NCBI GenBank assembly: GCA_027487075.1
Contig: JAIYEG010000010.1
Location: 47,270 to 111,269, forward strand
DNA from: a bacterium
Lineage (GTDB): Bacteria > Patescibacteriota > Minisyncoccia > Phycocordibacterales > CALRBL01
Length of the DNA: 64,000 nucleotides
Reading direction: 5' to 3'
Shown: piece by piece, positions 2,488 through 57,444 of the stretch
Position numbering within the stretch: the first letter of the stretch is position 1
How the letters are laid out: each line of letters opens with the position of its first letter
Program-made: the position numbers and the translations under genes
The notes under the pieces: model-generated
What the model was told of the DNA's origin: nothing
The model's database searches: none
Seen by the model: the letters and a program-made list of their open reading frames with translations, nothing else

Positions 2488-2594
2488 AGTTTGCTCTCAT
2501 GCTTTTCAAGAGCACGGATATTTTCTTGCTAGAAAATTCCTCGTGTTCGCTCCGTCGAGCCTCACAAGGCTCTTTCCAAGCATAAGTGCAAACT
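2488..2594. repeat. Nested palindromic intergenic element, copy 1
   Basis: Outer imperfect IR agtttgctctcatgcttttcaagagc / gctctttccaagcataagtgcaaact encloses the core GAGCACGGATATTTTCTTGCTAGAAAATTCCTCGTGTTCGCTCCGTCGAGCCTCACAAGGCTC, which is shared with 5 other loci. Confidence 0.75.
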
Positions 2595-2621
2595 TCTTTT
2601 TTCTACGTTATGATATATCGC

Positions 2622-2960
2622 ATGAGTTATGAACTGCGACATGTAATTAAACGCAATCAAGAAGGCATTCCCACCGAAAAAGATTCTTCACTCAAGCGGT
2701 CACTTGATTCTATCGCCTACCCCGTCGCACTTATCGGTCCACTCTCAAGTCTCGATCAGGCGCTCCGTATTTGGAACGAGCAAAGCGCTGAGGGTGTGTC
2801 AGTCGTTGTGTGGGTAGTTCTCCTCTTCACTTCAAGCTTTTGGATTTTATACGGGATCGTACACCGTGAGCGTGTCATTCTCTTCGGTCATCTCGTGTGG
2901 TTTATTTTGAGCACTATTATTCTCTTTGAAATCATTTATTTCGCGTACTTGGTTGTCTAG
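2622..2960 (+). CDS. PQ-loop / SemiSWEET-like small membrane protein
   Basis: About 110 aa with 3 predicted TM helices. Motif ...DQALRIW...GVS...W...YG... resembles PQ-loop (MtN3) repeats. Start placed after the repeat element. Confidence 0.4.
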   Translation: MSYELRHVIKRNQEGIPTEKDSSLKRSLDSIAYPVALIGPLSSLDQALRIWNEQSAEGVSVVVWVVLLFTSSFWILYGIVHRERVILFGHLVWFILSTIILFEIIYFAYLVV

Positions 2961-2972
2961 CAATACTCCTAC

Positions 2973-3953
2973 TTAAAGCGAGAAATTCTTAAGTGAGTAG
3001 AGCTCCTCGGTATCATCTTTATCTTCAGAGAGCTTTGCATCTGGATCGCCTTCAAACGGTTTATGGTCTTCTGTCACTGGTGCAGCGAGCGCTTCTGCAA
3101 CTGCTGCCTCTTTATTTTTTTCGAGCATGTTCAAAATGGCACGCAAATCTTCGTTTGAGAAAAAGTCGATGGTGAGCTTACCTCCTGACTCTTTCTTTTC
3201 GATTGAGACGCGCGTTCCGAGTGTCTCAGAAAGCTTACCCTGCATATCGATGAGCTCCTGATCGACGATTTCCTTCTTGCGTGTTTTTTCTACCGCAATC
3301 TTGCGCGCAATGGTTTCCGCCTCGCGCACATTGAGCTTGCGGAATACAATTTCTTTGAAGAGCGTCTCCTGCTCTTCGGGACGATCGACAAGCATGAGGA
3401 GTGGTCGGGTGTGTCCTTCGGTGATTTTGCCATCAGATACCGCCTGAAGCATGTGTTCTGGAAGTGCAAGGATACGAATCGTGTTTGAAACATATTCACG
3501 ACTCTTTCCTACCTTGATACCGATTTCTGAATGCTTGAAGCCAAACTCCTTAGAAAGCTGATTGAATGCCTTGGCACGGTCGACAGGATTAAGATCTTCT
3601 CGCTGAATGTTCTCGATGATCGCAAGCTCGAGCTTCATGAGGTCGCTGTCCTCCTTTGCACGAATGAGCACTGGCACCTGCTGGAGCCCTGCGAGCTTCG
3701 AGGCGCGGAGGCGGCGTTCTCCAGCGACAAGCTCATACTCCACCGCCATACTGCCGTCATCACGGAAAATCTCTTTACGCGTCACCACGAGTGCTTGGAG
3801 CACGCCGTATTGGCGGATAGAGTCAGCGAGCGCCTGGAGCGCTGACTGATCGAATTCACGACGTGGTTGGAAGGGGTTCGGCTTGATCTTTTCTACTTCG
3901 ACCCAATAAATCGCATTGTTGTAAAAGGGAGATGATGGTTGTGGTTCGGTCAT
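2973..3953 (-). CDS. parB: ParB/Spo0J-family partition protein (orphan, no parA in window)
   Basis: ParB box (GERR), HTH and dimerisation region. Start trimmed to MTEPQP... because the longer ORF reads through the upstream palindromic element. Confidence 0.8.
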   Translation of the reverse strand: MTEPQPSSPFYNNAIYWVEVEKIKPNPFQPRREFDQSALQALADSIRQYGVLQALVVTRKEIFRDDGSMAVEYELVAGERRLRASKLAGLQQVPVLIRAKEDSDLMKLELAIIENIQREDLNPVDRAKAFNQLSKEFGFKHSEIGIKVGKSREYVSNTIRILALPEHMLQAVSDGKITEGHTRPLLMLVDRPEEQETLFKEIVFRKLNVREAETIARKIAVEKTRKKEIVDQELIDMQGKLSETLGTRVSIEKKESGGKLTIDFFSNEDLRAILNMLEKNKEAAVAEALAAPVTEDHKPFEGDPDAKLSEDKDDTEELYSLKNFSL

Positions 3954-3971
3954 GGGATTTATATTACCATG

Positions 3972-4086
3972 AAGATAAAAAGAAAATAGTTGAAAAAAGA
4001 GCACGGATATTTTCTTGTTAGAAAATTCCTCGTGCTCGCTCCGTCGAGCCTCGCAAGGCTCTTTTTTCAACTATTTTCTTTCCATC
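3972..4086. repeat. Nested palindromic intergenic element, copy 2
   Basis: Perfect outer IR gaaaatagttgaaaaaagagc / gctcttttttcaactattttc around the core GAGCACGGATATTTTCTTGTTAGAAAATTCCTCGTGCTCGCTCCGTCGAGCCTCGCAAGGCTC. Confidence 0.8.
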
Positions 4087-4116
4087 TTCACAGTTTTATA
4101 GTACCTTAATGAACAT

Positions 4117-4200
4117 GCCGGAGTGGCGGAATGGTAGACGCACACGACTCAAAATCGTGTATCGCAAGGTGTGAGAGTTCGAGTCTCTCCTCCGGCACCA
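4117..4200 (+). tRNA. tRNA-Leu(CAA), CCA encoded
   Basis: GCCGGAG acceptor, long variable arm, anticodon loop CTCAAAA, T-arm GGTTCGAGTCC, terminal CCA. Confidence 0.85.
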
Positions 4201-4312
4201 CATAATCCTTGATAAAAGAGAGGTCGCAAGTTCTTCCATCGCAACAATCACAAGCAACACCGAAGGTGGCGCCTTCAGCTGTTGTGGTTGAAGGAGACTG
4301 GGATCATGTTTT

Positions 4313-4345
4313 AACGCAACGCCGCCCCTGGCATAGGGGCGGCGT
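4313..4345 (+). terminator. Rho-independent terminator hairpin
   Basis: cgccgcccc-tggcata-ggggcggcg followed by TTTTGTG. Confidence 0.5.
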
Positions 4346-4376
4346 TTTGTGTATTGTCTAACATGCTTATATCCCC

Positions 4377-5231
4377 ATGAAAAAGCCAAAACCCTCAATC
4401 ATCGTCATCCTCGGTCCCACCGCCTCAGGCAAAAGCGATCTTGCCGTACAACTCGCCACAAAACTCAATGGTGAGGTGGTGTCTGCGGACTCGCGCCAAG
4501 TATACAAAGGCCTCGATCTTGGGAGTGGCAAAATCACTCCCACAGAAATGCAAGGTATTCCCCACCATCTTCTTGATGTGGTAGATCCTAACATCATATT
4601 TTCAGTAAAAGATTTTCAAGATCATGCGTACAAAGCTATCGACGACATCATCACCCGCGGCAAACTCCCCATCATATGTGGAGGTACCGGCTTTTATATT
4701 CAGGCAATCGTCGACGGTCTCATATTTCCTGAAGTGAATGCAGATGTAAAGCTGCGAAAAGAACTTGAACAGAAAAGCACCGAAGAGCTTTTTGCAGAGC
4801 TCACCGTTCTCGATCCCAAACGAGCACAATCAATCGATAGACACAACAAAGTTCGCATCATACGTGCTCTCGAACTCATTCATGCCACCGGAAGCACCCC
4901 CACCATTCGCAAAAAACCGCACTACAACGCACTTCAAATTGGTATCAAGTACCATGACGAACGACTCAAAGAACGCATCAAGGAGCGCATCGAAAAACGC
5001 ATCAAGCTCGGCATGATCGAAGAAGTCGAACGACTACGTAAGGAAGGCGTGTCGTGGAAACGCCTTGAGAGCTTCGGACTCGAGTATCGCTTTATCGCAC
5101 AGTATCTTCAGAACAAGTTCACCAAAGAAGAAATGATTACCCTTCTCGCAACAGCAATCTGGCATTTTGCAAAACGCCAAATGACATGGTTCAAGCGTGA
5201 TCCGCGGATATGGTGGATTGAGGTGAAGTAG
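4377..5231 (+). CDS. miaA: tRNA dimethylallyltransferase
   Basis: P-loop GPTASGKS and MiaA core motifs. Confidence 0.9.
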   Translation: MKKPKPSIIVILGPTASGKSDLAVQLATKLNGEVVSADSRQVYKGLDLGSGKITPTEMQGIPHHLLDVVDPNIIFSVKDFQDHAYKAIDDIITRGKLPIICGGTGFYIQAIVDGLIFPEVNADVKLRKELEQKSTEELFAELTVLDPKRAQSIDRHNKVRIIRALELIHATGSTPTIRKKPHYNALQIGIKYHDERLKERIKERIEKRIKLGMIEEVERLRKEGVSWKRLESFGLEYRFIAQYLQNKFTKEEMITLLATAIWHFAKRQMTWFKRDPRIWWIEVK

Positions 5232-5632
5232 CAAGGACACTCTTGCTCAGGATGACCATCAAGAACCATGACGTGATCTTCTGCGTAGAAACAGCCGCCC
5301 ATGCGTGTACCTGATCAGGATATTGCCACGCACCAAGGAACGTCGAAATATTCTCTGCGATCCAGATGAAGAACGCTACAAGTATAAGTCCGACATTGAG
5401 TGGCATCCATCGACGTCAGGTGGTAACCGTAAAATACACGCGCGTTCTCCAAAACAACGCAAATACGGCAACAATCAAAAAGAGTCGAATATCATAGACA
5501 TAAAAAGACCCTGCAAATATTGCGGATCGCGCTTGCTTGAGGCCGAAAGTGAGGAATTCGTATGCCATATTGTTTTATTACACCATATCAGATAGTATCA
5601 GCCACAAACAAACACCTTAACAAGGAGAACCA

Positions 5633-5995
5633 ATGCACATTAACCATTTATGGGAAGGGGAACAACCCCTGGCCAATGATACGATTCTCACCTCCGTCGC
5701 CATCGATACCATCGAGAGGGGTAGCCCCGCTGACCTCAAAGCAAAAGGAGAGCTCGCATTCACCGACTGCCATGAAGGATTCGGCAAGGAGTGCGCGTGG
5801 GAAGCGACCGCTACCCTCAATGGCACGTCATGGATATGGAGCGTAAAACGGCGAGTACGCGCCGAGGAAGCAACATTCCAAGACAGCTCGACAGGTGAAC
5901 CAGCCTTCACCCGAATCGAAGAGGTAAACACGGCGATCAGGGACTTCGTTTCCGCGCAGCTATCGGAACTCACCACACTCTTCTTTGAAGGATAG
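5633..5995 (+). CDS. Hypothetical protein in a GC-rich islet
   Basis: 120-aa ORF. Local GC is clearly higher than the flanks, and an antisense ORF competes, so the coding strand is uncertain. Confidence 0.3.
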   Translation: MHINHLWEGEQPLANDTILTSVAIDTIERGSPADLKAKGELAFTDCHEGFGKECAWEATATLNGTSWIWSVKRRVRAEEATFQDSSTGEPAFTRIEEVNTAIRDFVSAQLSELTTLFFEG

Positions 5996-6026
5996 TGCGC
6001 ACGCACGCTAGTCACCCACCACCAAC

Positions 6027-6058
6027 CGTGGCCTTTTGTTAAAAAGGCCACGGTTTTT
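6027..6058. terminator. Bidirectional terminator hairpin
   Basis: aaccgtggccttttt-gtt-aaaaaggccacggtt with flanking T/A runs, between convergent genes. Confidence 0.5.
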
Positions 6059-6061
6059 ATT

Positions 6062-6472
6062 TCATTGTAAATCGAGGAGATAATCCCCTGTTGGATTCGG
6101 TTCGGGTGCCTTTATAAAACCATTCTTTTCCCAAAAGCCCTTGCTTGCCGATGACACTTGCGATGCTCGAATATGCAGCATACCTTGTTCTTTTGCCCAC
6201 GACAGCATGTGCTCAAGTGCTTTAGAGCCATACCCGCTTCCTGTCATATCTTTAGAACCCGTCTTTAGAAGTACCGTCATATTGGTAATAACAAGATCAG
6301 AACCGCTCTCATCATTCAAAAGCACACGTATTGAGACCACTACATCATCAAAAGAAAACGAGAGTCGTCTAGCATTCTCATTGCGCTTTTCACTCTCAAC
6401 ACGCACATCACCAGCAAGTCGTAAAGAGTTGAAGATATCGTGCTCGGATGATGAAGCGCTTTCAAATTGCAT
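6062..6472 (-). CDS. GNAT-family N-acetyltransferase
   Basis: 136 aa. Acetyl-CoA-binding-like segment (...GSGYGSKALEHMLSWAKEQG...). Confidence 0.7.
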   Translation of the reverse strand: MQFESASSSEHDIFNSLRLAGDVRVESEKRNENARRLSFSFDDVVVSIRVLLNDESGSDLVITNMTVLLKTGSKDMTGSGYGSKALEHMLSWAKEQGMLHIRASQVSSASKGFWEKNGFIKAPEPNPTGDYLLDLQ

Positions 6473-6512
6473 AAAATAAGTATTCTAATAAGCTTAGTAT
6501 ACAATCAATAAC

Positions 6513-7313
6513 ATGGGCATACAAAAACGTGATGGGAAATGGAGTTTCCAGAATGCAAAAATTAGAAAATGCTTACCTGAAGACATAATTCAGCCAGCCA
6601 TCGATACTAAAGATAATGAGGATTTTAAGGAAATTATTCTTACTTTCTCACTTATGTTCAATGATCTAAAAAATATAACAATAGTAAATGATAGTATGAT
6701 GGAATTATATTCCATAGATAAGAAAGACTTGGTAAGCGGCAATAATGGTGAAATAACTGGTATTAGCTATTATATGGCTAGATTACTATTTGGCACACTT
6801 CACGAATCACTTCAGTATTTAAAAGAAAAAAGAAAAATATTAGAATCCTCAGAATTTACCAAATTAATTAAAGACCTATCTGCAGATGATAGTATGCGAT
6901 GGAAGTTGGTTTGTTGTATTGCTTTTGAAAATGAAATTACCACGGATGACTTCAGAAGTGATTTCATTTATCAAACTAAAGATATTATTGATTTACTTAA
7001 ATCCATAAGAAACAATGTTTCGTTTCATTACCAAACAAAAAAAAGATTGGCCGATGGCTACAGAAATTTCTTTTATAAAAAAGAAATAAACAAATCCAAT
7101 AAATTCGCATTGAGATCTTTGCAAAAAACCAGTTTTTTAGATACACGATATTACTTTGCTGATGGAGCAATAGAAGGATACTTTTCTGAAATTTTTCATG
7201 AAAAATATTCAATTAAGGAATTTACAAATAAAAGCTTAGAAATTTCCGCTTTGCTATGCTCTTCAATTAATTCAATTTTAAATATTTATTTTGAAAAATT
7301 ACCTAACAGATAA
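6513..7313 (+). CDS. Hypothetical protein, strongly AT-rich, possible Abi/HEPN-like defence protein
   Basis: 266 aa at about 28% GC, well below the neighbours. Carries an R-x5-H motif (IRNNVSFHYQ). Lies next to tRNA-Trp. Confidence 0.55.
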   Translation: MGIQKRDGKWSFQNAKIRKCLPEDIIQPAIDTKDNEDFKEIILTFSLMFNDLKNITIVNDSMMELYSIDKKDLVSGNNGEITGISYYMARLLFGTLHESLQYLKEKRKILESSEFTKLIKDLSADDSMRWKLVCCIAFENEITTDDFRSDFIYQTKDIIDLLKSIRNNVSFHYQTKKRLADGYRNFFYKKEINKSNKFALRSLQKTSFLDTRYYFADGAIEGYFSEIFHEKYSIKEFTNKSLEISALLCSSINSILNIYFEKLPNR

Positions 7314-7332
7314 AAACCAAACGACAACAAGG

Positions 7333-7404
7333 CGGGCCCACCAGGACTCGAACCTGGAACCTCGCTTTTGGAGAGCGATGTTTTACCATTGAAACTATAG
7401 GCCC
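7333..7404 (-). tRNA. tRNA-Trp(CCA)
   Basis: Cloverleaf on the minus strand: acceptor GGGCCTA, anticodon loop CTCCAAA, T-arm GGTTCGAGTCC. Confidence 0.8.
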
Positions 7405-7418
7405 GTACGCACCACCAT

Positions 7419-7452
7419 AACAAAAAATCGCTCCTTGTGGAAGCGATTTTTT
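7419..7452 (-). terminator. Terminator hairpin downstream of rpmG
   Basis: aaaatcgcttcc-acaa-ggagcgatttt. Confidence 0.45.
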
Positions 7453-7467
7453 GTGAGGGTCGGCTTG

Positions 7468-7632
7468 TTAGCCAGTAATCTTAGCCTCTTTGTGGGCAGT
7501 GCTCTTCTTGCAATTTGCGCAGAACTTCTTGAACTCGAGCTTCTTGGTGACAAGCTTCTTGTTCTTGCTGGTATAGTAATTAGCGTTCTTGCAGGTGGTG
7601 CATTTGAGACGCAATAATCGGTCTTGTGACAT
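7468..7632 (-). CDS. rpmG: 50S ribosomal protein L33 (zinc-ribbon type)
   Basis: 54 aa, C4 motif (CTTCKNANYYTSKNKK...CANCKK...HKEAKI). Confidence 0.8.
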   Translation of the reverse strand: MSQDRLLRLKCTTCKNANYYTSKNKKLVTKKLEFKKFCANCKKSTAHKEAKITG

Positions 7633-7655
7633 AGTTCCGACACTATATCGCAAAG

Positions 7656-8315
7656 TTGCAGAGTATGCAAATGCGATATACTAACGATATGTCCCACATC
7701 GCTAAAAGCCTTTTAGTGAGCATGATCGCCGTACTCCTTATAGGAGGTATCGGATATTATGCTTTTATACGCCCTCAACCTTCCAAAAATCCCCCTCTCA
7801 AAGAGGGTCCTATCATTGCCTTCGGTGACAGCCTTGTAAAAGGGTTTGGAGCAAACACGGGACATGATTTTGTATCGATCTTAGGCGATCTTGTCGGACA
7901 GCGCATCGAGAACCGCGGGGTAAACGGCGATACCACCGCTTCCGCCCTTGCACGCATCGACAATGTCCTCGCTGATGAACCTTCAGTGGTGATTGTCCTT
8001 CTTGGTGGCAACGATTTTCTTCGACGAGTTCCGCAAGATCAAACATTTGAAAACCTCGGCATTATCGTTGATCGTATTGAAGCGAGTGGTGCGCGCGTCG
8101 TGCTTCTTGGCGTACGCGGAGGCTTCATCACCGATACCTACGCCGAACGCTTCCAATCGTTCGCCGACAATCGACGCCTCTATTTTGTTCCCAACGTCCT
8201 CGAGGATGTGTTAGGTAACCGCAGTCTCATGTCGGACGAAATACATCCAAACGACGCTGGATATAAACTTATTGCAGAAAAAGTAGCACCCGCTCTTAAA
8301 GAAGCACTTAAATAA
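7656..8315 (+). CDS. SGNH/GDSL-family hydrolase (arylesterase-like), membrane-anchored
   Basis: N-terminal TM, GDSL block (FGDSLVKG), GGNDF, and catalytic DxxH (DEIHPN). Confidence 0.8.
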   Translation: MQSMQMRYTNDMSHIAKSLLVSMIAVLLIGGIGYYAFIRPQPSKNPPLKEGPIIAFGDSLVKGFGANTGHDFVSILGDLVGQRIENRGVNGDTTASALARIDNVLADEPSVVIVLLGGNDFLRRVPQDQTFENLGIIVDRIEASGARVVLLGVRGGFITDTYAERFQSFADNRRLYFVPNVLEDVLGNRSLMSDEIHPNDAGYKLIAEKVAPALKEALK

Positions 8316-22407: not shown

Positions 22408-22439
22408 TTGTAATGAATTATAGCATCGTTTGAGTGTTT

Positions 22440-22558
22440 GTAAAAAAACAGAAAACTCATCATTGAGTAAGATGTTGCGGAGCGCTCGGCGCGAGCATAG
22501 GAATTTTCTAGTAAGAAAATATCCGCGTCTTACGAAAGATGAGTTTTCTGTTTTTTAC
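22440..22558. repeat. Nested palindromic intergenic element, copy 3 (inverted core orientation)
   Basis: Perfect outer IR gtaaaaaaacagaaaactcatc / gatgagttttctgttttttac around the core ...GCGAGCATAGGAATTTTCTAGTAAGAAAATATCCGCGTC. Abuts the gyrA stop. Confidence 0.8.
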
Positions 22559-25032
22559 AAACAAATCAACGATGCAATAGAATCCCCTTCACGTAGCTTC
22601 ATGATGCGCACACCTTGTGTATCACGTCCAAGCGCAGGGATTTCTTTAAGATCACAACGGATCACCTGAGCTTTCTTTGAGATCGCCACCGCTTCTTCAA
22701 ATTCTTCGGTGATAATCTTCGCGGAGATGAGATCGCCCGTCTTTGGTGTCACCTTCACGGTCTTGATGCCTGATCCGCCGCGGCCTTGGATCTTGTATTC
22801 ATTGAGAGAAGTCTTCTTTCCGTACCCATTCGATGACATCACGAGCACATAGCCGTCTTTTGCCGCTGCTTTCTTTGCAGTGTCAGCACCAACCACCGTC
22901 ACCCCCTTATCAAGCTTCATAACACGCACTCCTCCTGCAGCGCGGCCCATCTCGCGGACTTCATCTTCAGAGAAACGAATTGACTGGCCATCAGACGCTA
23001 CCACCATCACACTGTCACCCTTTTCTACAAATGACGCAGACACAAGCTCATCGTTTGGTTCGAGACGAATTGCAATGATGCCACTACGACGCACATCATG
23101 GAAACTTTCTGCAGATACACGCTTTCCGGTACCAAACTTGGTGACAAGCATGAGTGAAAGCTCACTTCCCTTTTTCACTTCACTTGGCATAGGAAGAATA
23201 GAGGTCACACGCTCATTTTGTGCGATTGAGAGGAAGTTCATGATCGACTTTCCGCGAGTCGCTCGTTTTCCTTCAGGAATTTCATAGGTCTTGATCTGAT
23301 ATGCCTTACCCTTGTCGGTGAAGAACAGAAGATCTGCATGAGTATTAGTGGTGATGAAGTGGGTGATAAAATCCTCCTCTTTAGTATTGATATCCACCAC
23401 CCCCACTCCTCCGCGCTTCTGCTTTCGGTATTCATCGGGATCGGTGCGTTTGATGTAGCCACCTGAAGTGAGCACGATCACGGTCTCTGCATCAGGAATG
23501 ACATCTTCGATAGAGAAGTTCTTGGCGTCGTGCTTCACAATCTTAGTACGTCGCTCGTCACCATATTTTTCTTTGATTTCAGCAAGCTCCGTCTTGATGA
23601 TACCAATCACTTTCTTTGCAGATGCGAGAATTGCTTTGAGTTCACCGATGAGCTTCTGCACTGCAGCAAGCTCGTCTTCCACCTTCTTTCGCTCGAGGTT
23701 TGCAAGGCGCTGGAGTCGCATTTCAAGAATCGCTACTGCCTGGCGGTCGGTGAACTTAAACTTCTTCATCAAGTTTGCTTTTGCTTCATCGACATCTTTC
23801 GAAGCACGAATAATCTTAATCACTTCATCGATGTGATCGAGTGCAATCTTAAGACCAAGGAGAATATGTTCACGCTCCTCTGCTTTACGAAGATCAAACT
23901 CCGTACGTCGGCGGATCACCACTTTGCGATGAGCAACAAACTCTTCAAGAAATGCCTTGAGTGAAAGTGTCTGAGGCACACCATCGACGAGTGCCACAGC
24001 GTTGACGTGGAAAGATTCCTGAAGGCGGGTGTGTTTATACAAATAGTTAAGAATCTGTTCTGGGTATGCACCACTCTTAAGCTCTACCACGACGCGCACG
24101 TCATCCGTAGATTCGTCGCGAAGGTCTTTAATGCCTTCGATTTTCTTGTCTCGGTGAAGATCGGCGATAGAGGTGATGAGGTCTGCTTTGTTTACGCGAT
24201 ACGGAATAGACGTGATGATGATCGATGCTTTGCCGGCTTTGTCTTCGACAATCTCGGCTTCACCTCGTACCACAATACCTCCCTTTCCTGTTGCATAGGC
24301 ATGAGCAATGTCTTTTGCACCATAGGCAATACCTCCGGTTGGGAAATCGGGCCCTTTGATGAACTGAAGGAGGTCTTCGGTGGTTGCTTCTGGGTTTTCG
24401 AGAAGGTGTGTGGTTGCATCTACCACTTCACCAAGATTATGAGGAGCAATAGATGATGCCATACCCACGGCGATACCGAGGGTTCCGTTTAAAAGAAGAT
24501 TAGGAACAGCGGTAGGAAGCACGCTCGGCTCTTTTTTGGTACCGTCGTAGTTTGGACGGAAGTCGACAGTCTCTTTGTCGATATCACGAAGAAGCTCATC
24601 GGCAAGACGAGACATTTTTGCTTCGGTATAACGCTGAGCAGCAGCCCCGTCACCGTCAATCGAACCGAAGTTTCCCTGTCCGAGCGCGAGCGGATAGCGC
24701 ATCGAGAAAGGCTGCACCATACCTACGAGCGTCTGGTACACTGCGGCATCACCGTGTGGGTGATAATTACCGAGCACTTCTCCGACCACAGCAGCTGACT
24801 TACGATTCTTGGCACCAGCGGTAAGACCGAGCTCTTTCATCGCAAACAAAATACGACGGTGCACCGGCTTGAGTCCATCACGCACATCAGGAAGCGCACG
24901 ATCAGTGATCACTGACATCGCATAGTCGATGAATGACTCGCGCATTTCAGCGACGATTCCACGAGGGATTACCGACAGACGTTCAGCAGAAATAGGAGTC
25001 TCTTCGTTTTTCGGGGTTTCTTTTTTTGCCAT
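22555..25032 (-). CDS. gyrA: DNA gyrase subunit A
   Basis: 825 aa. Active-site region (AAMRYTE-like YTEAKMS), QRDR-like segment and C-terminal beta-pinwheel repeats. Confidence 0.95.
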
Positions 25033-27595: not shown

Positions 27596-27657
27596 CAAAA
27601 CACCATAAAAAAAGCGAGCGGGGAGGATACTCAATGCTCGCTTTTTTTATGGTGTTT
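27596..27657. terminator. Long perfect-IR bidirectional terminator (an 'empty' counterpart of the nested palindromic elements)
   Basis: aaacaccataaaaaaagcgagc / gctcgctttttttatggtgttt (22-bp perfect IR) around a 16-nt loop, between convergent rpsA and a minus-strand gene. Confidence 0.6.
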
Positions 27658-31156: not shown

Positions 31157-31234
31157 TGGGCATGTGCTGGCGTAGTATTTCACCTTCATCAAGTGAAATA
31201 TGCGGGTTCGATCCCCGTCATGTCCACCAAAACA
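31157..31234 (+). other. Aberrant tRNA-like element (acceptor stem + T-arm + CCA, D-arm missing)
   Basis: GGGCATG...CATGTCC-A-CCA acceptor pairing, T-arm GCGGG-TTCGATC-CCCGT, anticodon-like hairpin TTTCAC-CTTCATCAA-GTGAAA. Only 12 nt lie where the D-arm should be. Confidence 0.35.
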
Positions 31235-31278: not shown

Positions 31279-31478
31279 CATCTAGTTTGTCGTGTCCACC
31301 AGCTGCAATGCAGCACACATAGTAAAAACCACGGAAGACACAAAGTCAATCAATAAGTAAAGTTAGTTTCAAGACTTGCTATATTTTATTTCCTGGAAAA
31401 AACATCGCGCAGTGCACGAGTATAGCAATTCTCACCAGAAAACATGCATGTTTTTGGAAGACAAGTAAGAGCGGCTTA

Positions 31479-31614
31479 CAAGGGGGCAGGTACCTTTTCA
31501 CTATATCTTGGAAGGAGGCTCGCGGAGTGCGACGGCACGAGCGTGAGGAATTTTTTAGTAAAAAAATATCCGTACTCCTGGAAAGATATAGTGAAAAGGT
31601 ACCTGCCCCCCTTG
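31479..31614. repeat. Nested palindromic intergenic element, copy 4
   Basis: 31-bp perfect outer IR caagggggcaggtaccttttcactatatctt / aagatatagtgaaaaggtacctgccccccttg around the core ...GGCACGAGCGTGAGGAATTTTTTAGTAAAAAAATATCCGTACTC. Lies upstream of rpsU. Confidence 0.8.
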
Positions 31615-31649
31615 CAAAGCACCTCACCTCGTGTTATTCTCTACAACCT

Positions 31650-31883
31650 ATGGCAACAAACGTCCAAATCGAACGAGGAGCAACCGAAAATAACGCCGTT
31701 GTTATTCGTAAATTCACCAAAAAGGTCCAGGAAGCTGGTATTTTGAACCGTGTTCGCGGTATTCGCTACCACGAGCGATCAGCTTCAAAATACGTTCAAA
31801 AGAAGAAGGCACTCAAGGTCCTCGGCCGCCGCAAGGAAATGGAACTCCAGATCAAGCTCGGCAAAGTTCGCGCTCGCGCCTAA
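31650..31883 (+). CDS. rpsU: 30S ribosomal protein S21
   Basis: 77-aa basic protein with S21-like pattern (VVIRKFTKKVQEAGIL...RYHERSASKYVQKKKA). The longer upstream ORF is a read-through of the repeat element. Confidence 0.75.
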   Translation: MATNVQIERGATENNAVVIRKFTKKVQEAGILNRVRGIRYHERSASKYVQKKKALKVLGRRKEMELQIKLGKVRARA

Positions 31884-47208: not shown

Positions 47209-47718
47209 ATGAAAAAGAAATCATTTTTTGAAAGACTGACCGGCGGCGTCGATCTCGATGATGAGTACGAAATCGAAGAAGAGGAAGTCGAGCACACCAA
47301 GCGCATGCAGCCAACCTCTCACCTCAAAGTGAAGGAGGCTTCAAGCTCAAATATGACCGATTGGAGCATCGATGAGGCACATGAAGGCCAACTCACCGTC
47401 GATGTCTACCAAACTCCAAGCCACATCATCATCAAAACGCTCGTTGCTGGCGTGAAGCGCGACGATCTTGATATCTCTATCTCTCGCGACATGGTGACCA
47501 TCAAAGGAAAACGTGAAGAAGAGCGCGGTGTCCAAGACGAAGACTATTTCCACAAGGAATTATACTGGGGTGCATTCTCTCGCACTATCATGCTACCAAG
47601 CGAAATCGATATCGATGGCGCCGAAGCCACCGAAAATCTCGGTATGCTCATCATCAAGCTTCCAAAGATTGATAAAGGAAAGCAGACGAAACTCCGTGTG
47701 ATGAAGTCGTTGAATTAA
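47209..47718 (+). CDS. Hsp20/alpha-crystallin small heat-shock protein
   Basis: Alpha-crystallin domain (VDVYQTPSHIIIKT...KREEER) with an I-x-I-like tail. Confidence 0.85.
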   Translation: MKKKSFFERLTGGVDLDDEYEIEEEEVEHTKRMQPTSHLKVKEASSSNMTDWSIDEAHEGQLTVDVYQTPSHIIIKTLVAGVKRDDLDISISRDMVTIKGKREEERGVQDEDYFHKELYWGAFSRTIMLPSEIDIDGAEATENLGMLIIKLPKIDKGKQTKLRVMKSLN

Positions 47719-47721
47719 CTC

Positions 47722-47814
47722 CAAAAATACCTTTCGAAGACGCGGATATTTTCTTACTAGAAAATTCCTATGCTCGCTCCAAGAGCTCCGCAACATCTTC
47801 TCAAGGTATTTTTG
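47722..47814. repeat. Nested palindromic intergenic element, copy 5
   Basis: Outer IR ccaaaaatacctt / aaggtatttttg around the core GACGCGGATATTTTCTTACTAGAAAATTCCTATGCTCGCTCC.... Starts 3 nt after the hsp20 stop. Confidence 0.75.
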
Positions 47815-47828
47815 TATTTAATTCTCCT

Positions 47829-47875
47829 AACCAAAAATTCTCTAAGGTCACAATTTGTGACCTTAGAGAATTTTT
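47829..47875. terminator. Long perfect palindrome / bidirectional terminator
   Basis: aaaaattctctaaggtcacaa | ttgtgaccttagagaattttt (perfect about-21-bp arms), between the copy-5 element and tRNA-Phe. Confidence 0.55.
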
Positions 47876-51718: not shown

Positions 51719-52009
51719 TTATCGTGCTTCAGAAAGTTTCTCCGTAGGAGACAAACCTCCAAGTGCCTTGTGCGGAAAATAATTCCAGGCGTCGGTGACC
51801 GTTTCAATGGCATTACTCAAATTCACAGGATCGCCGTCATCGAACATGGCGACGATTTCCTGCATATCGTCATTGTCCTCCTCTTCGTAAATCGCCATCT
51901 TCACGTCATCAAGGGTAAAATCGCTCCCCGTTGCTTCGAGAAGCTCAGTGATTTCCTCCTCGATCTCCTTTCGACGTTCAATGATTTGTTGTTTTGATTC
52001 GGTATTCAT
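51719..52009 (-). CDS. Small acidic hypothetical protein downstream of the DGR target gene
   Basis: 96 aa, highly acidic (EEEDNDDMQE). Confidence 0.35.
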   Translation of the reverse strand: MNTESKQQIIERRKEIEEEITELLEATGSDFTLDDVKMAIYEEEDNDDMQEIVAMFDDGDPVNLSNAIETVTDAWNYFPHKALGGLSPTEKLSEAR

Positions 52010-52142
52010 ATATTTTTAAATATTTACAAAAATTTGGCGCGAGCTTGCTTCGCAAGCAAAGACAAAGTATCTAAGTATCCAAGATTCAAAGGGTCAAAGA
52101 TGCAAAGCAGAAGAATAAAGCGGAGAAAAAGGATACAAAGGA

Positions 52143-53981
52143 CTAAGCCTCAACCTTGCGGAGACGGAACGCGAACTTGCGGTCCGGACGCCACCCGCCG
52201 CCGGGCCCCGCCCAAGCGCCGTCGAGCCACAAACCGTCGACGTAGCGTACGAGCTTGAAGACGTCCGGGTCGCCGTCGGAGTCGGTAATCTGCTTCATAC
52301 CGATATAGAAATACTCTCCTAAGGGTTGATTCTTGTACTTGAGGCGGTAATTCGGTCCCGTATCTGCGGGGCATAATTCCAAACCCAGTTCTTCTGCTCG
52401 TTTATAAATCTGATCGGTGGTGGCATTTGACTTGAATCCCAAATCGGCGACAGTGAGACGGATGAGGGTAGCTTGTTCCGGTTTACCGGTAACGAAGTCT
52501 GGATTTTCTATCATGCTTTTTGCATAGTCAGAAATATTGATGCCAGCCGTTTCCATTTCAGAAATAAGTTGCTCTTTTGATTTTCCTCCGATCTCAACCT
52601 CTTCCCTTCGAATCTTCTTGTCGGGAAATGAGGTGTAAACATGCTCTAAAGTTTCAGGAAGCTTTTGGAAGATGCCTGGTTCGAGCTGGCCTACATACGC
52701 TTTCGTATGCTCATTAATTTGACTCGGCACATGAGCAATCTCTTCTTTGGTACAGTCAAAGATGACGAGCATGTCTTCTTCAGTGTTTCGATCTTGACGC
52801 AACTCAGCTACTCGGGGATCTTTCTGGTAGCCGAAGCCTTCGATCGACGAATTGATCTCATACAAGAATATGAGATCGTCTTTGGTGAACGATTCCTCAT
52901 TTTCATGTTTTTTCTCAAGAGAGGTTAAGACGCGCATGTCCTCGCTCTTCTTGCGGTAGGCATCGGCCTCGGTGCCGAATTCGGAAAGCTTGCCATCAAG
53001 AGCTTCCTGCATGACAGGCTCAACTCCCTGATGCGGGAGTATGCCTCGAACTTCCCCGATCCTGTTGTCCCCGTCCATGCGGATGGCGAGGCGCGGCTGG
53101 GTCGGTTCGCCATTTGAATCGTTGGTATAGAAGACATAAAAATCACCGCTCTCAATTTGTGCCTCAGCGGTCGAAGATCCTGCCGTACACCAACCGGTGC
53201 CCTTGCCTTCGAGCGACTTGAAGAGTTTCGCTGCATCGCCAATTCTTCCTTGCTCGTACTTGACCCACTCTCCCTTGATCTCTTCGCGGTTCTCCATCGA
53301 AGCCGCGAGGGATTTCTGGATGAGTTCTGCATAGAGGGTGGGAAACTTCTTGGAAAAGGCTTCCTTAATTTCAGGCTCCTTGAGGTTCTTGTTGTCTTCC
53401 TTTACTTTAAGGTATATGTCGGCAATCTGGGCCAGAGGCTCGCGGTAGATGTCAGGAAATGGAGCGACGGTCGAGTCGGTGCGCTTCTTGAACTCGCCAC
53501 GCTCCTTGTCGAATTGCGACAACTTGATGATGTTCTTCCAGGCAAAATATTTGAACCATGCGGGATAGACGGCGTCATCCGAGGTGAGATAGTCCATCCA
53601 AGCATCAAGGGAGTGTCTTTGGTCTTCAATAGCTACATCCATCATCTGCTCGCGTATATTTGCAGGAATTTCCTCGACAGCTTGACCACGCTCACGGGCG
53701 ATGCGTTGCTGGAGCTCGAAGTAGCTTTCAGGGAAATTCTCTTTCTTAATGAGAAGCGCGTCATATATCTTGTCCCGAAACATCTCGAGATTGCGCTCCC
53801 GCACCCTCTCGTCTGGATTGAGGAAGATATTTTCTAACCTATCCATGTACGCTTCAATACGCTCGGCCGGATCATTGGGCACTTTTTCTCCTTCAAGGCG
53901 TTCCTGCTTTTCCACCGCAGCCTGCACCTCTTCGGAGGTCTGAAGCTCGGGATTTTTGATGTGGAGAGGGTGTTTTTCCAT
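52143..53981 (-). CDS. DGR target (variable) protein, with variable repeat at its C-terminus
   Basis: 612 aa. The C-terminal 43 aa (...SDGDPDVFKLVRYVDGLWLDGAWAGPGGGWRPDRKFAFRLRKVEA) are encoded by the VR. The ...FRL ending is typical of DGR C-type-lectin-fold variable regions. Confidence 0.8.
   Translation of the reverse strand: MEKHPLHIKNPELQTSEEVQAAVEKQERLEGEKVPNDPAERIEAYMDRLENIFLNPDERVRERNLEMFRDKIYDALLIKKENFPESYFELQQRIARERGQAVEEIPANIREQMMDVAIEDQRHSLDAWMDYLTSDDAVYPAWFKYFAWKNIIKLSQFDKERGEFKKRTDSTVAPFPDIYREPLAQIADIYLKVKEDNKNLKEPEIKEAFSKKFPTLYAELIQKSLAASMENREEIKGEWVKYEQGRIGDAAKLFKSLEGKGTGWCTAGSSTAEAQIESGDFYVFYTNDSNGEPTQPRLAIRMDGDNRIGEVRGILPHQGVEPVMQEALDGKLSEFGTEADAYRKKSEDMRVLTSLEKKHENEESFTKDDLIFLYEINSSIEGFGYQKDPRVAELRQDRNTEEDMLVIFDCTKEEIAHVPSQINEHTKAYVGQLEPGIFQKLPETLEHVYTSFPDKKIRREEVEIGGKSKEQLISEMETAGINISDYAKSMIENPDFVTGKPEQATLIRLTVADLGFKSNATTDQIYKRAEELGLELCPADTGPNYRLKYKNQPLGEYFYIGMKQITDSDGDPDVFKLVRYVDGLWLDGAWAGPGGGWRPDRKFAFRLRKVEA
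52158..52285 (-). repeat. DGR variable repeat (VR)
   Basis: 128 bp. 109/128 identical to the TR, and all 19 differences lie where the TR has adenine. Confidence 0.88.
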
Positions 53982-54251
53982 AGGGGCATTTTAGCAGGAA
54001 ACAGCCGTTTTTGGTATATTGATAGAAGATCGGTTGCATTGAACGGTTACGGCTTTTCAAGACCGATTCGGCTCATATGCATTGAGAGCGTGGACGGCTA
54101 CGGTTTTCCACGGAGGATGCATGTGCCAGTCCATAAAAAAGAAAATACTTGGTGCGATGCGCTTGGTGGGTCTTGCTCACAAATTATATACAGTCCGGCC
54201 TCTCATGCTTGCATGTTAGGTGGACAGTGGCATTGATGGCGCCTCGCACGA

Positions 54252-54379
54252 ACCGACTCCGACGGCAACCCGAACGTCTTCAAGCTCGAACGCAACGACG
54301 ACGGTTTGTGGCTCAACGACAATTGGGCGAAGCCCGACAACGAGTGGAATCCGGACAACAAGTTCGCGTTCCGTCTCCG
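54252..54379 (+). repeat. DGR template repeat (TR)
   Basis: Intergenic, AAC-codon-rich (NDNWAKPDNEWNPDNK). 33 adenines, 19 of which are substituted in the VR. Followed by hairpin ccgcaac-ctcagac-gttgcgg. Confidence 0.88.
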
Positions 54380-54402
54380 AAACTGCTTTCTTTTCCGCAA
54401 CC

Positions 54403-54717
54403 TCAGACGTTGCGGTTTTTCTTTTCAGGATTTTCAAGACTCTTCTTCCAGCCGCCAAACATCTTTCCGACCTCCTCAAGCTTTAGAGCGACATCCTCGC
54501 ACTGCTTGTTGGAGATGAGCTTACCTTCCCATGCGACTGATACCAGAAATTTTAGGGTGTCTAATACAAGAATACATTCACTGACCTTTTCCAGTTTCTT
54601 CTCCTTTTCAGTAAAATAGGCGGTGTATGACAATTCAAGTAGATCTAAGAAAGTGTTCTCGATTCGAGAACCAATCGTATACCTCGAACCTTTAGCAATA
54701 TGAGGAACGATATTCAC
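54403..54717 (-). CDS. avd: Avd-like four-helix-bundle accessory protein (DGR accessory variability determinant)
   Basis: IAKGSRY...FLDLLELSY...EVGKMFGGWKKSL matches the 'four helix bundle / 23S rRNA IVS protein' family (IAEG...F.RFL.IA.GS...EV.KML.GLIKKL). GTG start; the frame stays open upstream into the (GA)n tract. Confidence 0.7.
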   Translation of the reverse strand: MNIVPHIAKGSRYTIGSRIENTFLDLLELSYTAYFTEKEKKLEKVSECILVLDTLKFLVSVAWEGKLISNKQCEDVALKLEEVGKMFGGWKKSLENPEKKNRNV

Positions 54718-54762
54718 CCAGATCAGATATCCCTCTTTGACTCGATTCAGAATCGAGGCGGA

Positions 54763-54798
<36 letters not shown>

Positions 54799-54800
54799 GA

Positions 54801-55814
54801 ATGCGGCCTGTTCATATCTACGATGATATCATTTCCGTCGAGAATTTGCTTAAGGCATGGCGAGAATTCCAGAAAGATAAAAGAAAACGCAAGGACGTGG
54901 AACGGTTCTCGGTTCACTTAACTGACAACATATTTGCCCTTCATAGGGAGTTAATGGACAAAACGTACCGACACGGCCCTTACAAAGCGTTCAAGATCAA
55001 TGACCCGAAGCCAAGAGATATTCATAAAGCTACGGTGCGAGATCGCTTGCTCCACCATGCGATCTATAGAATTCTTTACCCATACTTCGATCCGAAATTC
55101 ATCTTCGATTCTTTCTCATGCCGCCGTTCCAAAGGCACGCACCGAGCGATCAACCGCTTCCGTGATTATGCAAGAAAAGTTTCGCAAAATCACACTCGCA
55201 CTGTATGGGTGTTGAAGTGCGATATACGGAAATTCTTTGCCAATATCGACCATGCGATTTTAGAAGATATTTTAAGAAAGCGGATCGGCAATGAAGATGT
55301 CGTAATGCTTTTAAGCAGGGTCATCGAGAGCTTCAACACAAAAGGTAAGCTAGGCGTCGGACTTCCTTTGGGCAATCTGACCTCACAACTTTTGGTCAAT
55401 ATTTACATGAACGAATTTGACCATTTCTTGAAACGAAATTTGAAAATACAGTATTGCGTCAGATATGCCGATGATTTCGTCATCTTGCATGAAAACAAGA
55501 AATATCTGGAAAATATTCTGCCTCGGATATCAGAGTTTCTAGAGAGTAAATTGAGACTATCCTTGCATCCTGACAAAGTGTTCATGCGAACGATCGCCTC
55601 GGGAGTGGATTTTCTGGGATGGGTGCATTTTCCGCATCATCGGGTACCGAGGACATCGACCAGAAGGAGAATGTTAAAGAACCTGGCCAACAATCCGAAG
55701 GCGGGATCTCTGGCTTCGTATCAGGGGCTTTTGTCGCATGGAAATACGCACAAGCTACAAAAAGAGGTCGTTGATCGGAGCAAAACCGATCCCGCTAGGA
55801 ATAGGGGTTTATAA
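54801..55814 (+). CDS. DGR-type reverse transcriptase
   Basis: RT motifs 1-7: PKPRDIHKATVRDRLL, SFSCRRSKGTHRA, VLKCDIRKFFANIDH, LPLGNLTSQLLVNIYMNEFD (DGR hallmark LGxxxSQ), RYADDFVIL, SGVDFLGW. Confidence 0.9.
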   Translation: MRPVHIYDDIISVENLLKAWREFQKDKRKRKDVERFSVHLTDNIFALHRELMDKTYRHGPYKAFKINDPKPRDIHKATVRDRLLHHAIYRILYPYFDPKFIFDSFSCRRSKGTHRAINRFRDYARKVSQNHTRTVWVLKCDIRKFFANIDHAILEDILRKRIGNEDVVMLLSRVIESFNTKGKLGVGLPLGNLTSQLLVNIYMNEFDHFLKRNLKIQYCVRYADDFVILHENKKYLENILPRISEFLESKLRLSLHPDKVFMRTIASGVDFLGWVHFPHHRVPRTSTRRRMLKNLANNPKAGSLASYQGLLSHGNTHKLQKEVVDRSKTDPARNRGL

Positions 55815-55871
55815 CTTGACGATCTACGATAAGTGCTCTGTTGAGCCCTCTCGGTAGGTCTCACTAGCGTG

Positions 55872-55943
55872 TGCCCCCGGCAGGAATCGAACCTGCATCG
55901 ACTCGTTAGGAGTGAGCCGTTTTATCCATTAAACTACGGCGGC
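55872..55943 (-). tRNA. tRNA-Arg(CCU)
   Basis: T-arm GGTTCGATTCC, D-arm GTTTAATGGATAAAAC, anticodon loop CTCCTAA. One G-G mismatch in the acceptor stem and one A-C at 31:39. Confidence 0.6.
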
Positions 55944-55971
55944 GGAAATCACTATGTCTCTACTTAGGAGG

Positions 55972-56211
55972 TTAGGCAGCGATTTCGAGAAGCTCAGTAA
56001 GCGCGTCTTTATCAAAACCTATGATCACACTATCATCGATCACGGTCACTGGTACGCCCATCTGTTCGCTCCTCTCGATCATTTCTGCCCTCTTGGCTGC
56101 ATCAGCCGCTACGTTGTGTTCAGTGTACTGAATATTATGTTCTGCAAAAAAATCTTTGGTCATCTTGCAATACGTACAGTTCGGGGTGCTATAAATGGTT
56201 ACGTTTTTCAT
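55972..56211 (-). CDS. Glutaredoxin/NrdH-like small redox protein
   Basis: CTYC active site within a thioredoxin fold (KNVTIYSTPNCTYCKMTKDFF). Confidence 0.65.
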   Translation of the reverse strand: MKNVTIYSTPNCTYCKMTKDFFAEHNIQYTEHNVAADAAKRAEMIERSEQMGVPVTVIDDSVIIGFDKDALTELLEIAA

Positions 56212-56238
56212 ATGTGCTGGAGAGTATATCACATTCCC

Positions 56239-56784
56239 TTACCACGTACATGCTACCGTTCCAGTACATACTTGGTAGGTATGATCGGGGTGATACGGGT
56301 CATAAAATTGATCATTGGGTTGTACCGAACTATCGGGTGCACAGTGAGAAAAGAGCTTATACCCCACCCCATCCGAGCGATAGGTATATGCTTTCAAGTA
56401 TCCCAAACTACTACATGATATATACTTTGAAACTCCGCCTACCGGATCTCGAGGTAAAGCACTTATATACCCACCACTTACCAAACCTGGAATCCAGTTG
56501 CCATCATTATTATATCCATTTATATTTGTACTTCCTGGTTCAGAATCAAAATTTTGCGAGTTACCGTTAACGTCTACGGTTGAAGGGTATGAACCATGGT
56601 CAGCATAATACATTTCGAGAGCACTTCGAAGCGATACGAGTGTTTGTTTACGAATTGCATCACGCGCTCTCCCCCGTGCGGTATTGAGCGAACTCAACAC
56701 CACCGATGAAAGCACTCCAATAATAGCGATGACGATCAAGAGTTCAATAAGAGTAAACCCCCTAACGCTCCGGTACTTCTTCAT
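56239..56784 (-). CDS. Type IV pilin/pseudopilin
   Basis: RGFTLIELLIVIAIIGVLSSVVLSSL class III signal. Third pilin paralog in the window. Confidence 0.8.
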   Translation of the reverse strand: MKKYRSVRGFTLIELLIVIAIIGVLSSVVLSSLNTARGRARDAIRKQTLVSLRSALEMYYADHGSYPSTVDVNGNSQNFDSEPGSTNINGYNNDGNWIPGLVSGGYISALPRDPVGGVSKYISCSSLGYLKAYTYRSDGVGYKLFSHCAPDSSVQPNDQFYDPYHPDHTYQVCTGTVACTW

Positions 56785-57154
56785 CAGATTTAAAAATACT
56801 ACTTACATTGTTCCACATTTTTGAGAAGAAATCGGGTTGCTCAGGTGGCGGAGGTGGAGGTAATGGCTTATCCACCACGACGAGCACACTTTCACCCTCT
56901 TTTGACACCTGATACTTTTCTCGAAGCGCCGCCTCAATTCCTTCTTCGGTCGCAAGCTTTTCAGTTTCTTTTTTCAAAAGATCACGACGCTCCATAAGCG
57001 CATCATATTCCCTTTTAACCATCGCAACATTTTTTCGACTCTCTTTCTCTTTTTGATACACCTCAAAGGTGCCTCGCGCCAAAAGACCAATCATAATGAT
57101 GAGGCCAATAAGTACGGGCTTCGAATAGAGTCGTTGATTCTTAGAGCTTCCCAT
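56762..57154 (-). CDS. FtsB/DivIC-like septum-formation membrane protein
   Basis: N-terminal TM, then coiled coil (KESRKNVAMVKREYDALMERRDLLKKETEKL), and a poly-Pro tract. Confidence 0.4.
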   Translation of the reverse strand: MGSSKNQRLYSKPVLIGLIIMIGLLARGTFEVYQKEKESRKNVAMVKREYDALMERRDLLKKETEKLATEEGIEAALREKYQVSKEGESVLVVVDKPLPPPPPPEQPDFFSKMWNNVSSIFKSDEEVPER

Positions 57155-57327
57155 GATATATAGTATACATCATGTTATTCCATCCAAAACACAAAAAGCT
57201 ATTCAATGCGGTCTGGGCCGTTATCTGCGTTCTTGTCGCTCTCTCGATGATTCTCTTCTTCATCCCCGGCCTCCACTAAAAGACACTTAAAAACACTTCT
57301 CAGCAAGCGCGCATAAAATTCTGTTGA

Positions 57328-57444
57328 AACATTTCCTCTTATACTATTTGGAATAAACCTTGCGAGGCTCGACGGAGCGAGCACGAGGAATTTCCTAGTA
57401 AGAAAATATCCGTGTTTATGGAAAATAGTATAAGAGGAAATGTT
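57328..57444. repeat. Nested palindromic intergenic element, copy 6
   Basis: About 32-bp outer IR aacatttcctcttatactatttggaataaacc / ggtttatggaaaatagtataagaggaaatgtt around the core ...GCGAGGCTCGACGGAGCGAGCACGAGGAATTTCCTAGTAAGAAAATATCCGTG. Ends 1 nt before the lepA stop. Confidence 0.8.

Follow-up and report, generated by a model that had tools for sequence, protein, structure and literature searches.

Enterobacterial repetitive intergenic consensus sequences (ERIC, also known as intergenic repeat units, IRU) and Correia repeat enclosed elements (CREE) are imperfect palindromes of ~100-155 bp that occur in both orientations, are co-transcribed with their neighbors, affect mRNA ends and are conserved across genera. 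Palindrome-associated transposable elements (PATEs), derived from IS200/IS605 insertion sequences (ISs), are small and non-autonomous; they form imperfect hairpins with an extrahelical T that are read as single-stranded DNA, and they lack classical terminal inverted repeats. The Rickettsia palindromic elements (RPEs) are said to have been described by Ogata et al. in 2000. Repetitive extragenic palindromes (REPs) have as their unit a 20-40 bp palindrome that bears an unpaired tag, GTAG or CGTC, on one of its ends, and REP hairpins containing unpaired bases are believed to be recognized in the form of single-stranded DNA (PMC3733652). Intragenic copies of RPEs and REPs have been described, including one in uvrB of Rickettsia conorii (PMC3733652). 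Here, we analyzed six palindromic loci in a 64,000-nt stretch of DNA (the window) from a bacterium of the Patescibacteria, or Candidate Phyla Radiation (CPR) (GenBank assembly GCA_027487075.1, contig JAIYEG010000010.1, positions 47,270 to 111,269). These loci are probably copies of a non-autonomous palindromic interspersed repeat, akin to miniature inverted-repeat transposable elements (MITEs) and RPEs and specific to the CPR. We show here that the element is multi-copy, forms genome-specific subfamilies, is gained or lost between close relatives and is inserted whole, together with its arms.

The 25-nt core hairpin GGATATTTTCTTACTAGAAAATTCC occurs six times in the window at up to two mismatches (2516+, 4005+, 22500-, 31547-, 47744+ and 57387-, thus three per strand) and not once in 100 shuffles. 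A covariance model trained on 110 family members returned exactly the same six copies, with scores of 60.6-97 bits, the next match (17 bits) being a plain hairpin. An earlier note on this DNA had located these six loci, recognized the core in both orientations and divided the copies into two subfamilies (copies 1, 2, 4 and 6 versus copies 3 and 5), all of which was borne out, the subfamilies being visible in our alignment A1. The same note gave the arms as 12-32 bp and often perfect; the inverted arms are indeed present, but they are 29-43 nt long and 79-92% complementary, enclosing a core of 55-57 nt. Copy 3 is an exception, with 70 nt between the arms in the longest pairing reported.

The conserved center of the family, ~55-60 nt, folds as a single strand into a three-way junction, as seen in alignment A2 and in pair counts, with covariation assessed over ~150 copies. 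The order is basal stem, junction CAC, helix P1, one U, then helix P2 stacked on helix P3. The basal stem is variable, at least 13 bp long and 87% paired, with double changes at every pair; in P1, a bulged T separates 3 bp from the 7 bp that carry a TGCT-type loop; P2 (CGUGC/GCAAG) is coaxial with P3 (GCGC-CGUC-GCGC) over a small UC/UC internal loop, and the end loop is C(A)GTC. The decisive pair is 45-69, which is U-A in 81 sequences, A-U in 28, C-G in one and broken in none, whereas the rival pair 15-45, belonging to a GAGCAC...GUGCUC helix, is broken in 29. That helix was part of the three sub-hairpins drawn in the earlier note; it lacks covariation across the family, and the three-way junction replaces the drawing. 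In an alignment that includes divergent copies, double changes are found at 31 of 31 pairs and 92% of cells are paired, versus 64% in shuffles. For P1 itself, alignment A4, with divergent copies added, displays covariation at all 10 pairs with 99% of cells paired. Divergent P1 helices include GCAUAAUUUCC...GGAAAUUUGC and the GC-rich GCAUAUCCGCC...GGCGGAUUGC; such copies retain the bulged T and the TGCT-type loop, as well as the CAC of the junction and the C(A)GTC loop of P3. Single copies have a very stable fold, as RNA or as DNA (z ~ -11). A candidate pseudoknot between the P1 loop CUUGC and GCAAG was dropped, as it showed no covariation on inspection of the alignment. Some copies are expanded, by a second P1 or, between P1 and P2/P3, by additional hairpins or insertions of 80 nt (L021:549-723, L053:6825-6962, L057:2905-3070, L078:1039-1159, L031:7657-7762 and L100:3931-4034); the core region between P1 and P2/P3 is a hotspot for nested insertions or expansions.

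Beyond the window, we scanned reference genomes, one per species, with a degenerate P1 pattern. This core search, which the earlier note had proposed, recovered at least 119 stretches carrying a locus, nearly all of them in Patescibacteria/CPR, and the core was always enclosed by a basal stem. Among the matches listed, all but two outliers are metagenome-assembled genomes (MAGs) of Patescibacteria/CPR or uncultured MAGs with no phylum in the record title, the outliers being a chance palindrome, AT-rich, in Fulvivirga and a single short contig with a Flavobacterium label. Named carriers comprise Saccharibacteria, Paceibacterota/Parcubacteria, Nomura-, Taylor-, Morani-, Zambryski-, Yonath-, Vogel- and Wildermuthbacteria and Minisyncoccia; the GyrA protein encoded in the window is itself 67-70% identical to GyrA of Paceibacterota MAGs, which makes it probable that the window comes from a CPR genome. 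Several MAGs hold 4-6 loci each among the matches listed, and the covariance model added ~22 copies that the exact pattern had missed in the same 8-kb blocks. Searches for a known identity were negative: Rfam 15 returned only tRNAs at the gathering threshold and only generic hairpin (miRNA-precursor) matches below it, and no description of the element was found in the published literature, with the literal element sequence included as a query. The repeat is apparently undescribed so far in CPR bacteria. A scan of viral contigs gave two matches to the 25-nt P1 pattern, neither confirmed by the covariance model, and hence no phage link. Probes for rRNA detected elements beside a 16S gene and none inside any rRNA gene; in L022, two family members (4195-4287 and 7022-7115) surround a 16S rRNA gene, one ~400 nt upstream in antisense and one downstream in sense.

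The same intergenic sites are filled in several distantly related genomes, at times in opposite orientation. Such recurrent sites are found downstream of an M23-peptidase-like gene (L006, L010, L031, L037, L086 and L090), downstream of gyrA (L057:2884-2990 and copy 3 of the window) and in the spacer between FtsQ and Dus (L077 and L113). They could be old retained copies or reflect a target preference.

Turnover of the family is visible at several scales. Some variants are diagnostic of single genomes, such as all-GTAC/CGTAC in Moraniibacteriota STB_169, all-CGAGC/GCTAG in ELA554 and all-CTCCCAAG in bin-744, and one MAG labelled Saccharibacteria carries an entire 150-nt hairpin, arms included, at no fewer than three loci. 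We examined 63 metagenome contigs encoding ParB at 50-83% identity within the same tRNA-Leu/parB/topA synteny and found only three weak model matches in 398 kb, versus six copies in the 64-kb window; the sites orthologous to copies 1 and 2 are short in these relatives and lack the element. At a finer scale, L129 and L125 have near-identical flanks, and a 150-nt family member in L129 stands where L125 has 32 unrelated nucleotides, with no direct duplication at the filled site. Contigs often terminate inside the element, as expected of a repeat that breaks assemblies, and the exact hsp20 protein of the window is on record in one 2.5-kb contig, which ends at the element.

A further line of evidence comes from genes. 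At least eight copies lie without a stop codon in long conserved open reading frames (ORFs), in both orientations and using all four open frames of the core (L094:4426-6645, L073:3872-5089, L002:4925-7666, L044:4939-6114, L076:5227-6549, L014:206-1429, L116:2793-3914 and L114:3159-4433). The host genes encode SecA, UvrB, TsaD (twice, at different positions), MnmA, a cysteine desulfurase and Dus (twice, at different positions). These copies add ~33-51 residues, and the insert length is a multiple of three in every one. Both halves of the UvrB protein align to one solved chain, and the 51 additional residues (153 nt) fall between positions 232 and 241 of that chain, while the ~35 extra residues of TsaD match a 98-nt palindrome; since both inserts equal the whole palindrome, the arms arrive with the element. 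SecA is intact on either side of its copy, and the MnmA copy is common to three MAGs. The 15 tandem neighbor pairs that we checked are complete, unrelated genes, and none is a gene split by an out-of-frame copy, which is what selection on translation predicts. The in-frame inserts are evidently translated through, to judge from the sequences. Four element-encoded peptides, joined end to end and compared with a protein database, yielded only 12 candidates, all of them short hypothetical ORFs, which is uninformative on the frequency of in-frame copies.

The long stem around the center has two layers, the inner arms being subfamily-specific and the outer arms locus-specific. T makes up 63% of the inner arms on the 5' side and A makes up 59% on the 3' side, a feature of the family, and several arm subfamilies have ends conserved across lineages, namely CAAAACTC-TTTCTC...TTCGAC-GAGTTTTG, AAATAG-CTCTTCTCAGAGG... 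and GCGAC..GGG-ATTCR-GRAGC. In the window, the arms differ at every locus. One outer arm is demonstrably native sequence in three cases. In copy 3, the outer arm 22551-22573 comprises the gyrA stop codon and the last codons before it (..SLICL), which GyrA of L057 and L064 also conserves, and the far-side arm 22425-22447 is its inverted duplicate (83% complementary). In copy 2, the outer left arm holds the native -10-like region of parB, conserved in relatives. In L129, homology to the native flank of L125 covers the right arm's outer 20 nt, the partner of which in the left arm is extra DNA. With one outer arm native and the other an inverted duplicate, the palindromes grow outward by inverted duplication of one flank. 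A shared flank, CTCTTTCTCGGCAT, which we had considered as a gene start on the opposite strand, proved to be the conserved arm of a long-form subfamily. The arm motif AAATAGT lies, relative to the core, in the 5' arm of copies 1 and 2 and in the 3' arm of copies 4 and 6, as if the core flipped between inverted arms or the arms were acquired independently.

With its conserved folded center and variable, self-built arms, the CPR family belongs with the bacterial interspersed palindromic repeats and is the inverse of MITEs and REPINs (REP doublets forming hairpins); its closest analogues are the RPEs and the REP/ERIC-type repeats. Like RPE-1 and its relatives, it consists of palindromic repeats of 100-150 bp with neither coding capacity nor a known transposase, located both between genes and in frame within conserved genes, including uvrB, where the added peptide is tolerated. 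However, RPEs reside in Rickettsia, and the likeness is one of description, not of sequence comparison; the conserved central three-way junction with covarying helices and the hypervariable arms, partly built from the flank, set the CPR family apart. We therefore regard it as an analogue of the RPEs and not as a member. REPs and REPINs, too, are palindromic hairpins in many copies, most of them downstream of genes, with an uneven spread among relatives and occasional copies within repair genes (PMC3733652), but the CPR unit is 100-150 nt long and no end tag was seen, CGTC occurring only as the P3 loop. REPIN doublets combine conserved arms with a variable spacer, the opposite of what we observe, and REPs are mobilized by the REP-associated tyrosine transposase (RAYT), a Y1 HUH transposase whose gene the repeats flank; none was seen with the CPR family in 1.33 Mb using an IS200 TnpA query, a weak test. 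ERIC/IRU and Correia elements resemble it as imperfect palindromes of comparable length in both orientations; unlike in the CPR family, their terminal inverted repeats are conserved, a TA target is duplicated, no three-way-junction core is present and the hosts are Enterobacteria/Vibrio or Neisseria only. PATEs share the small, non-autonomous hairpin with an extrahelical T, whereas the CPR family has no conserved 5' target tetranucleotide, no shared 5' flank and no replication-strand bias (three plus and three minus copies in a window with monotonic GC skew); in addition, the same query found no TnpA in 1.33 Mb, and PATEs lack the enclosing long palindrome. Classical MITEs are also short, non-coding, multi-copy and interspersed, but have terminal inverted repeats conserved among all copies and shared with an autonomous IS, which the CPR family does not. 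Integron attC sites differ as well: the copies described here are dispersed singly instead of standing in an array next to intI and, by inspection, their ends misfit the R''/R' (RYYYAAC/GTTRRRY) consensus.

Pair types bear on whether RNA or DNA is constrained. The three core helices contain 1190 Watson-Crick cells against 13 G.T and 15 A.C, a wobble of ~1%, and the basal stem has 17 G.T versus 38 A.C. In a helix under selection on one RNA strand, G.U is normally tolerated and A.C is not; that G.T is no commoner than A.C argues against such selection. At the level of sequence, the pattern fits a strand-symmetrical constraint, as expected if single-stranded DNA folds, if a cruciform forms or if a DNA palindrome is corrected on its own template. 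This matters for the operator or structured RNA module that was one of the three options of the earlier note. In its most explicit form, the element would be a host-functional structured RNA, acting as a protein-binding or processing signal in CPR mRNA 3' ends or leaders, maintained by purifying selection and repeatedly recruited. The strong covariation with conserved loops, bulge and junction is in its favor, as is the very stable fold. An identical 55-nt core is found in at least six differently named MAGs, and an element directly after gyrA also occurs in a genome whose GyrA is only 67% identical; these identical cores and the shared site could reflect long-term purifying selection for a host function instead of mobility. 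Gene ends abutting the element are in sense orientation in 40 cases versus 18 in antisense, tandem gene contexts divide 39 to 20, and this sense bias of 2:1 to 2.5:1 is indicative of some effect at the RNA level or linked to transcription; sense-oriented copies are also relatively richer in G.U (10 G.U to 13 A.C) than the others (6 to 30). Moreover, a constraint on single-stranded DNA is read from the missing G.U excess, which self-templated correction could also yield. These core identities, the orientation bias and this dual origin of the pair pattern weigh against a mobile repeat. Yet the structured RNA option is weakened by that same lack of a G.U excess in the core helices, by the third or so of gene-flanking copies that are antisense, by the copies within ORFs in both orientations, and by a patchy distribution that includes presence or absence between near-identical relatives and near absence from the 63 related contigs. 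Rfam offers no match, and the terminator-like U-tract is rare. The earlier note had described A and T runs as frequent at the arms; at least 8 T in 12 nt at the 3' arm end were found in only 10 of 102 copies, and instead of the stem-loop followed by a U-tract of an intrinsic terminator we find copies that also lie in promoter regions and within ORFs. On balance, a host-functional RNA is unlikely. Far less credible is an intron-like intervening sequence cut from transcripts, for instance by cleavage in the long stem followed by ligation, such that intragenic copies never reach the protein. The long, near-perfect stem would juxtapose the flanks, and copies flank the 16S rRNA gene in L022, but splicing would not require that all of the at least eight intragenic copies be frame-open with lengths in multiples of three, nor that out-of-frame splits be missing from 15 neighbor pairs, and no ribozyme family match was obtained.

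The arms speak against another option of the earlier note, namely a ~60-nt core that transposes into the loops of pre-existing terminators or other palindromic hairpins, the arms being host DNA. Part of this survives, in that local sequence on one side is the source of the outermost arm segments, which are inverted duplicates of one flank. In the comparison with relatives for empty sites, also proposed earlier, the core-less L125 has an imperfect palindrome at the site of the L129 element, and some relatives have short hairpins downstream of topA, but the far-side outer arm is new DNA in L129 and not a pre-existing partner. Loop insertion is not the rule, since the UvrB and TsaD inserts equal the whole palindrome, each subfamily keeps its inner arms from genome to genome (CAAAACTC...GAGTTTTG; AAATAG...CTATTT), copy 2 lies in a promoter region between divergent genes and only ~10% of copies have a U-tract; we consider it very unlikely. 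Growth of the arms by inverted duplication reverses the causality of insertion into pre-existing terminators but rescues part of the nested description. A signal in double-stranded DNA is comparably improbable, be it a recombinase site, a sequence for DNA uptake by these naturally competent bacteria or a site bound by a nucleoid or partition protein. Symmetrical pairing of Watson-Crick type only, both orientations, occasional intragenic copies and sharing across the CPR agree with it, but the stems vary freely while pairing is kept, with four pair types at many positions, which is unexpected for a reader of double-stranded sequence, and the density is only ~1 per 10 kb with absence from close relatives.

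The remaining option of the earlier note, a MITE-like family whose arms diverged while pairing was kept, is the best fit, on account of its multiple copies, genome-specific subfamilies, presence or absence in relatives and arm covariation. Several negative results count against such a mobile repeat. No transposase or other partner protein was found, the clustered neighboring ORFs being housekeeping genes only. The search for a co-occurring Y1/HUH transposase suggested by the earlier note, a tblastn with an IS200 TnpA query and a weak test, gave no match in 1.33 Mb. We saw no clear direct duplication of the target site, the flanks continuing as inverted and not direct repeats, nor any termini conserved among all copies, end motifs existing at subfamily level only (CAAAACTC...GAGTTTTG and AAATAG...CTATTT). 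An IS carrying the core was likewise not seen in the same 1.33 Mb; by inspection, TA is found on both sides of ~5 of 14 long-form copies.

Taking the loci as copies of a MITE/RPE-like repeat, the folded core would be the recognition module for a trans-acting protein that mobilizes or maintains the element, and single-stranded DNA is a likelier form for it than RNA. Hairpin-templated strand switching during replication is known from quasi-palindrome correction; here, it may extend the arms and keep them strictly Watson-Crick, which would explain why they are locus-specific and often perfect. Most copies directly follow stop codons, preferentially in sense, and would thereby place a very stable hairpin on mRNA 3' ends, where selection probably shapes which insertions survive. 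It is also possible, although we hold it to be doubtful, that the three-way junction is the handle of a CPR-wide system. This could be a new kind of mobile DNA, moving via a folded single-stranded intermediate, with arms self-built by inverted duplication of the target flank, without terminal repeats or direct duplications, and mobilized by a conserved host or domesticated enzyme. Alternatively, it could be a domesticated nucleic-acid signal spanning the phylum and read at gene ends by a CPR-specific protein. Either form would explain identical cores in distant lineages together with rapid local turnover.

The contexts of the six window copies were checked with Pfam. Copy 1 (2481-2601, plus strand; arms 2481-2513 and 2569-2601, model match 2500-2593, P1 2516-2540) begins 5 nt past the topA stop codon (2474-2476) and is followed by a SWEET-like gene (2622-2960). 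The gene that precedes it (221-2476) encodes DNA topoisomerase I, with Topoisom_bac, Toprim and zinc ribbon domains, and not GyrA as the earlier note had it; the true gyrA (22555-25032, minus strand) precedes copy 3, and the other gene contexts given in that note stand. Copy 2 (3960-4100, plus strand; arms 3960-4002 and 4058-4100, 43 nt and 86% complementary; match 3989-4082, P1 4005-4029) is placed between parB (start 3953, minus strand) and tRNA-Leu (4117), which diverge. Copy 3, of subfamily B, spans 22425-22573 on the minus strand (match 22448-22540, P1 22500-22524). Copy 4 (31476-31617, minus strand; arms 31482-31517 and 31575-31610, 36 nt and 92% complementary; match 31494-31587, P1 31547-31571) displays a compensatory change from C-G to T-A in P1; it is antisense to the genes on either side, upstream of rpsU (31650-31883). 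A weak tRNA match at 31158-31226, flanked by a HisRS-like gene and copy 4, is right at the Rfam threshold (29.2 bits, cutoff 29) and has no ARAGORN call. Copy 5, also of subfamily B (47712-47824, plus strand; 29-nt arms, 86% complementary; match 47728-47819, P1 47744-47768), includes the hsp20 stop codon (47716-47718) in its left arm. Copy 6 (57328-57444, minus strand; 31-nt arms, 90% complementary; match 57334-57427, P1 57387-57411) ends 1 nt away from the lepA stop codon (57446-57448, minus strand).

Two core-free palindromes had been put forward in the earlier note as bidirectional terminators. The one at 47829-47875, between copy 5 and tRNA-Phe, is a perfect 22-bp hairpin with A and T runs at its sides and looks like a real bidirectional terminator, so that copy 5 is not needed for termination. 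The other, at 27596-27657 (GGGGAGGATACTCAAT), has perfect 27-bp arms around a 16-nt center in which a P1-like start (GGATA) is fused to the CTCAAT motif of subfamily-B arms; it scores 13 bits with the covariance model and could be a core-deleted remnant of the element instead of a plain terminator. The copies generate spurious ORFs, as the earlier note had also remarked, and, as seen here, false N-terminal extensions (2973-4070, minus strand; 31527-31883 and 31444-31746, plus strand), lengthening ParB by 40 residues via copy 2 and ribosomal protein S21 by 41 via copy 4. The assembly index has no entry for the exact S21 protein, probably because of this false extension.

CPR genomes are tiny, ~1 Mb, and are thought to be poor in repetitive or selfish DNA. 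A repeat occurring at ~1 per 10 kb and also enlarging the essential proteins UvrB, SecA, TsaD and MnmA is an unreported force on the evolution of CPR genomes and proteomes. In practical terms, it breaks metagenome assemblies and introduces spurious ORFs and false N-terminal extensions into annotations, and the covariance model could serve as a CPR marker and for repeat masking in MAG pipelines. The combination of a conserved folded center with flank-built arms makes this family a tractable case for the study of palindrome growth and for finding a structure-specific enzyme.

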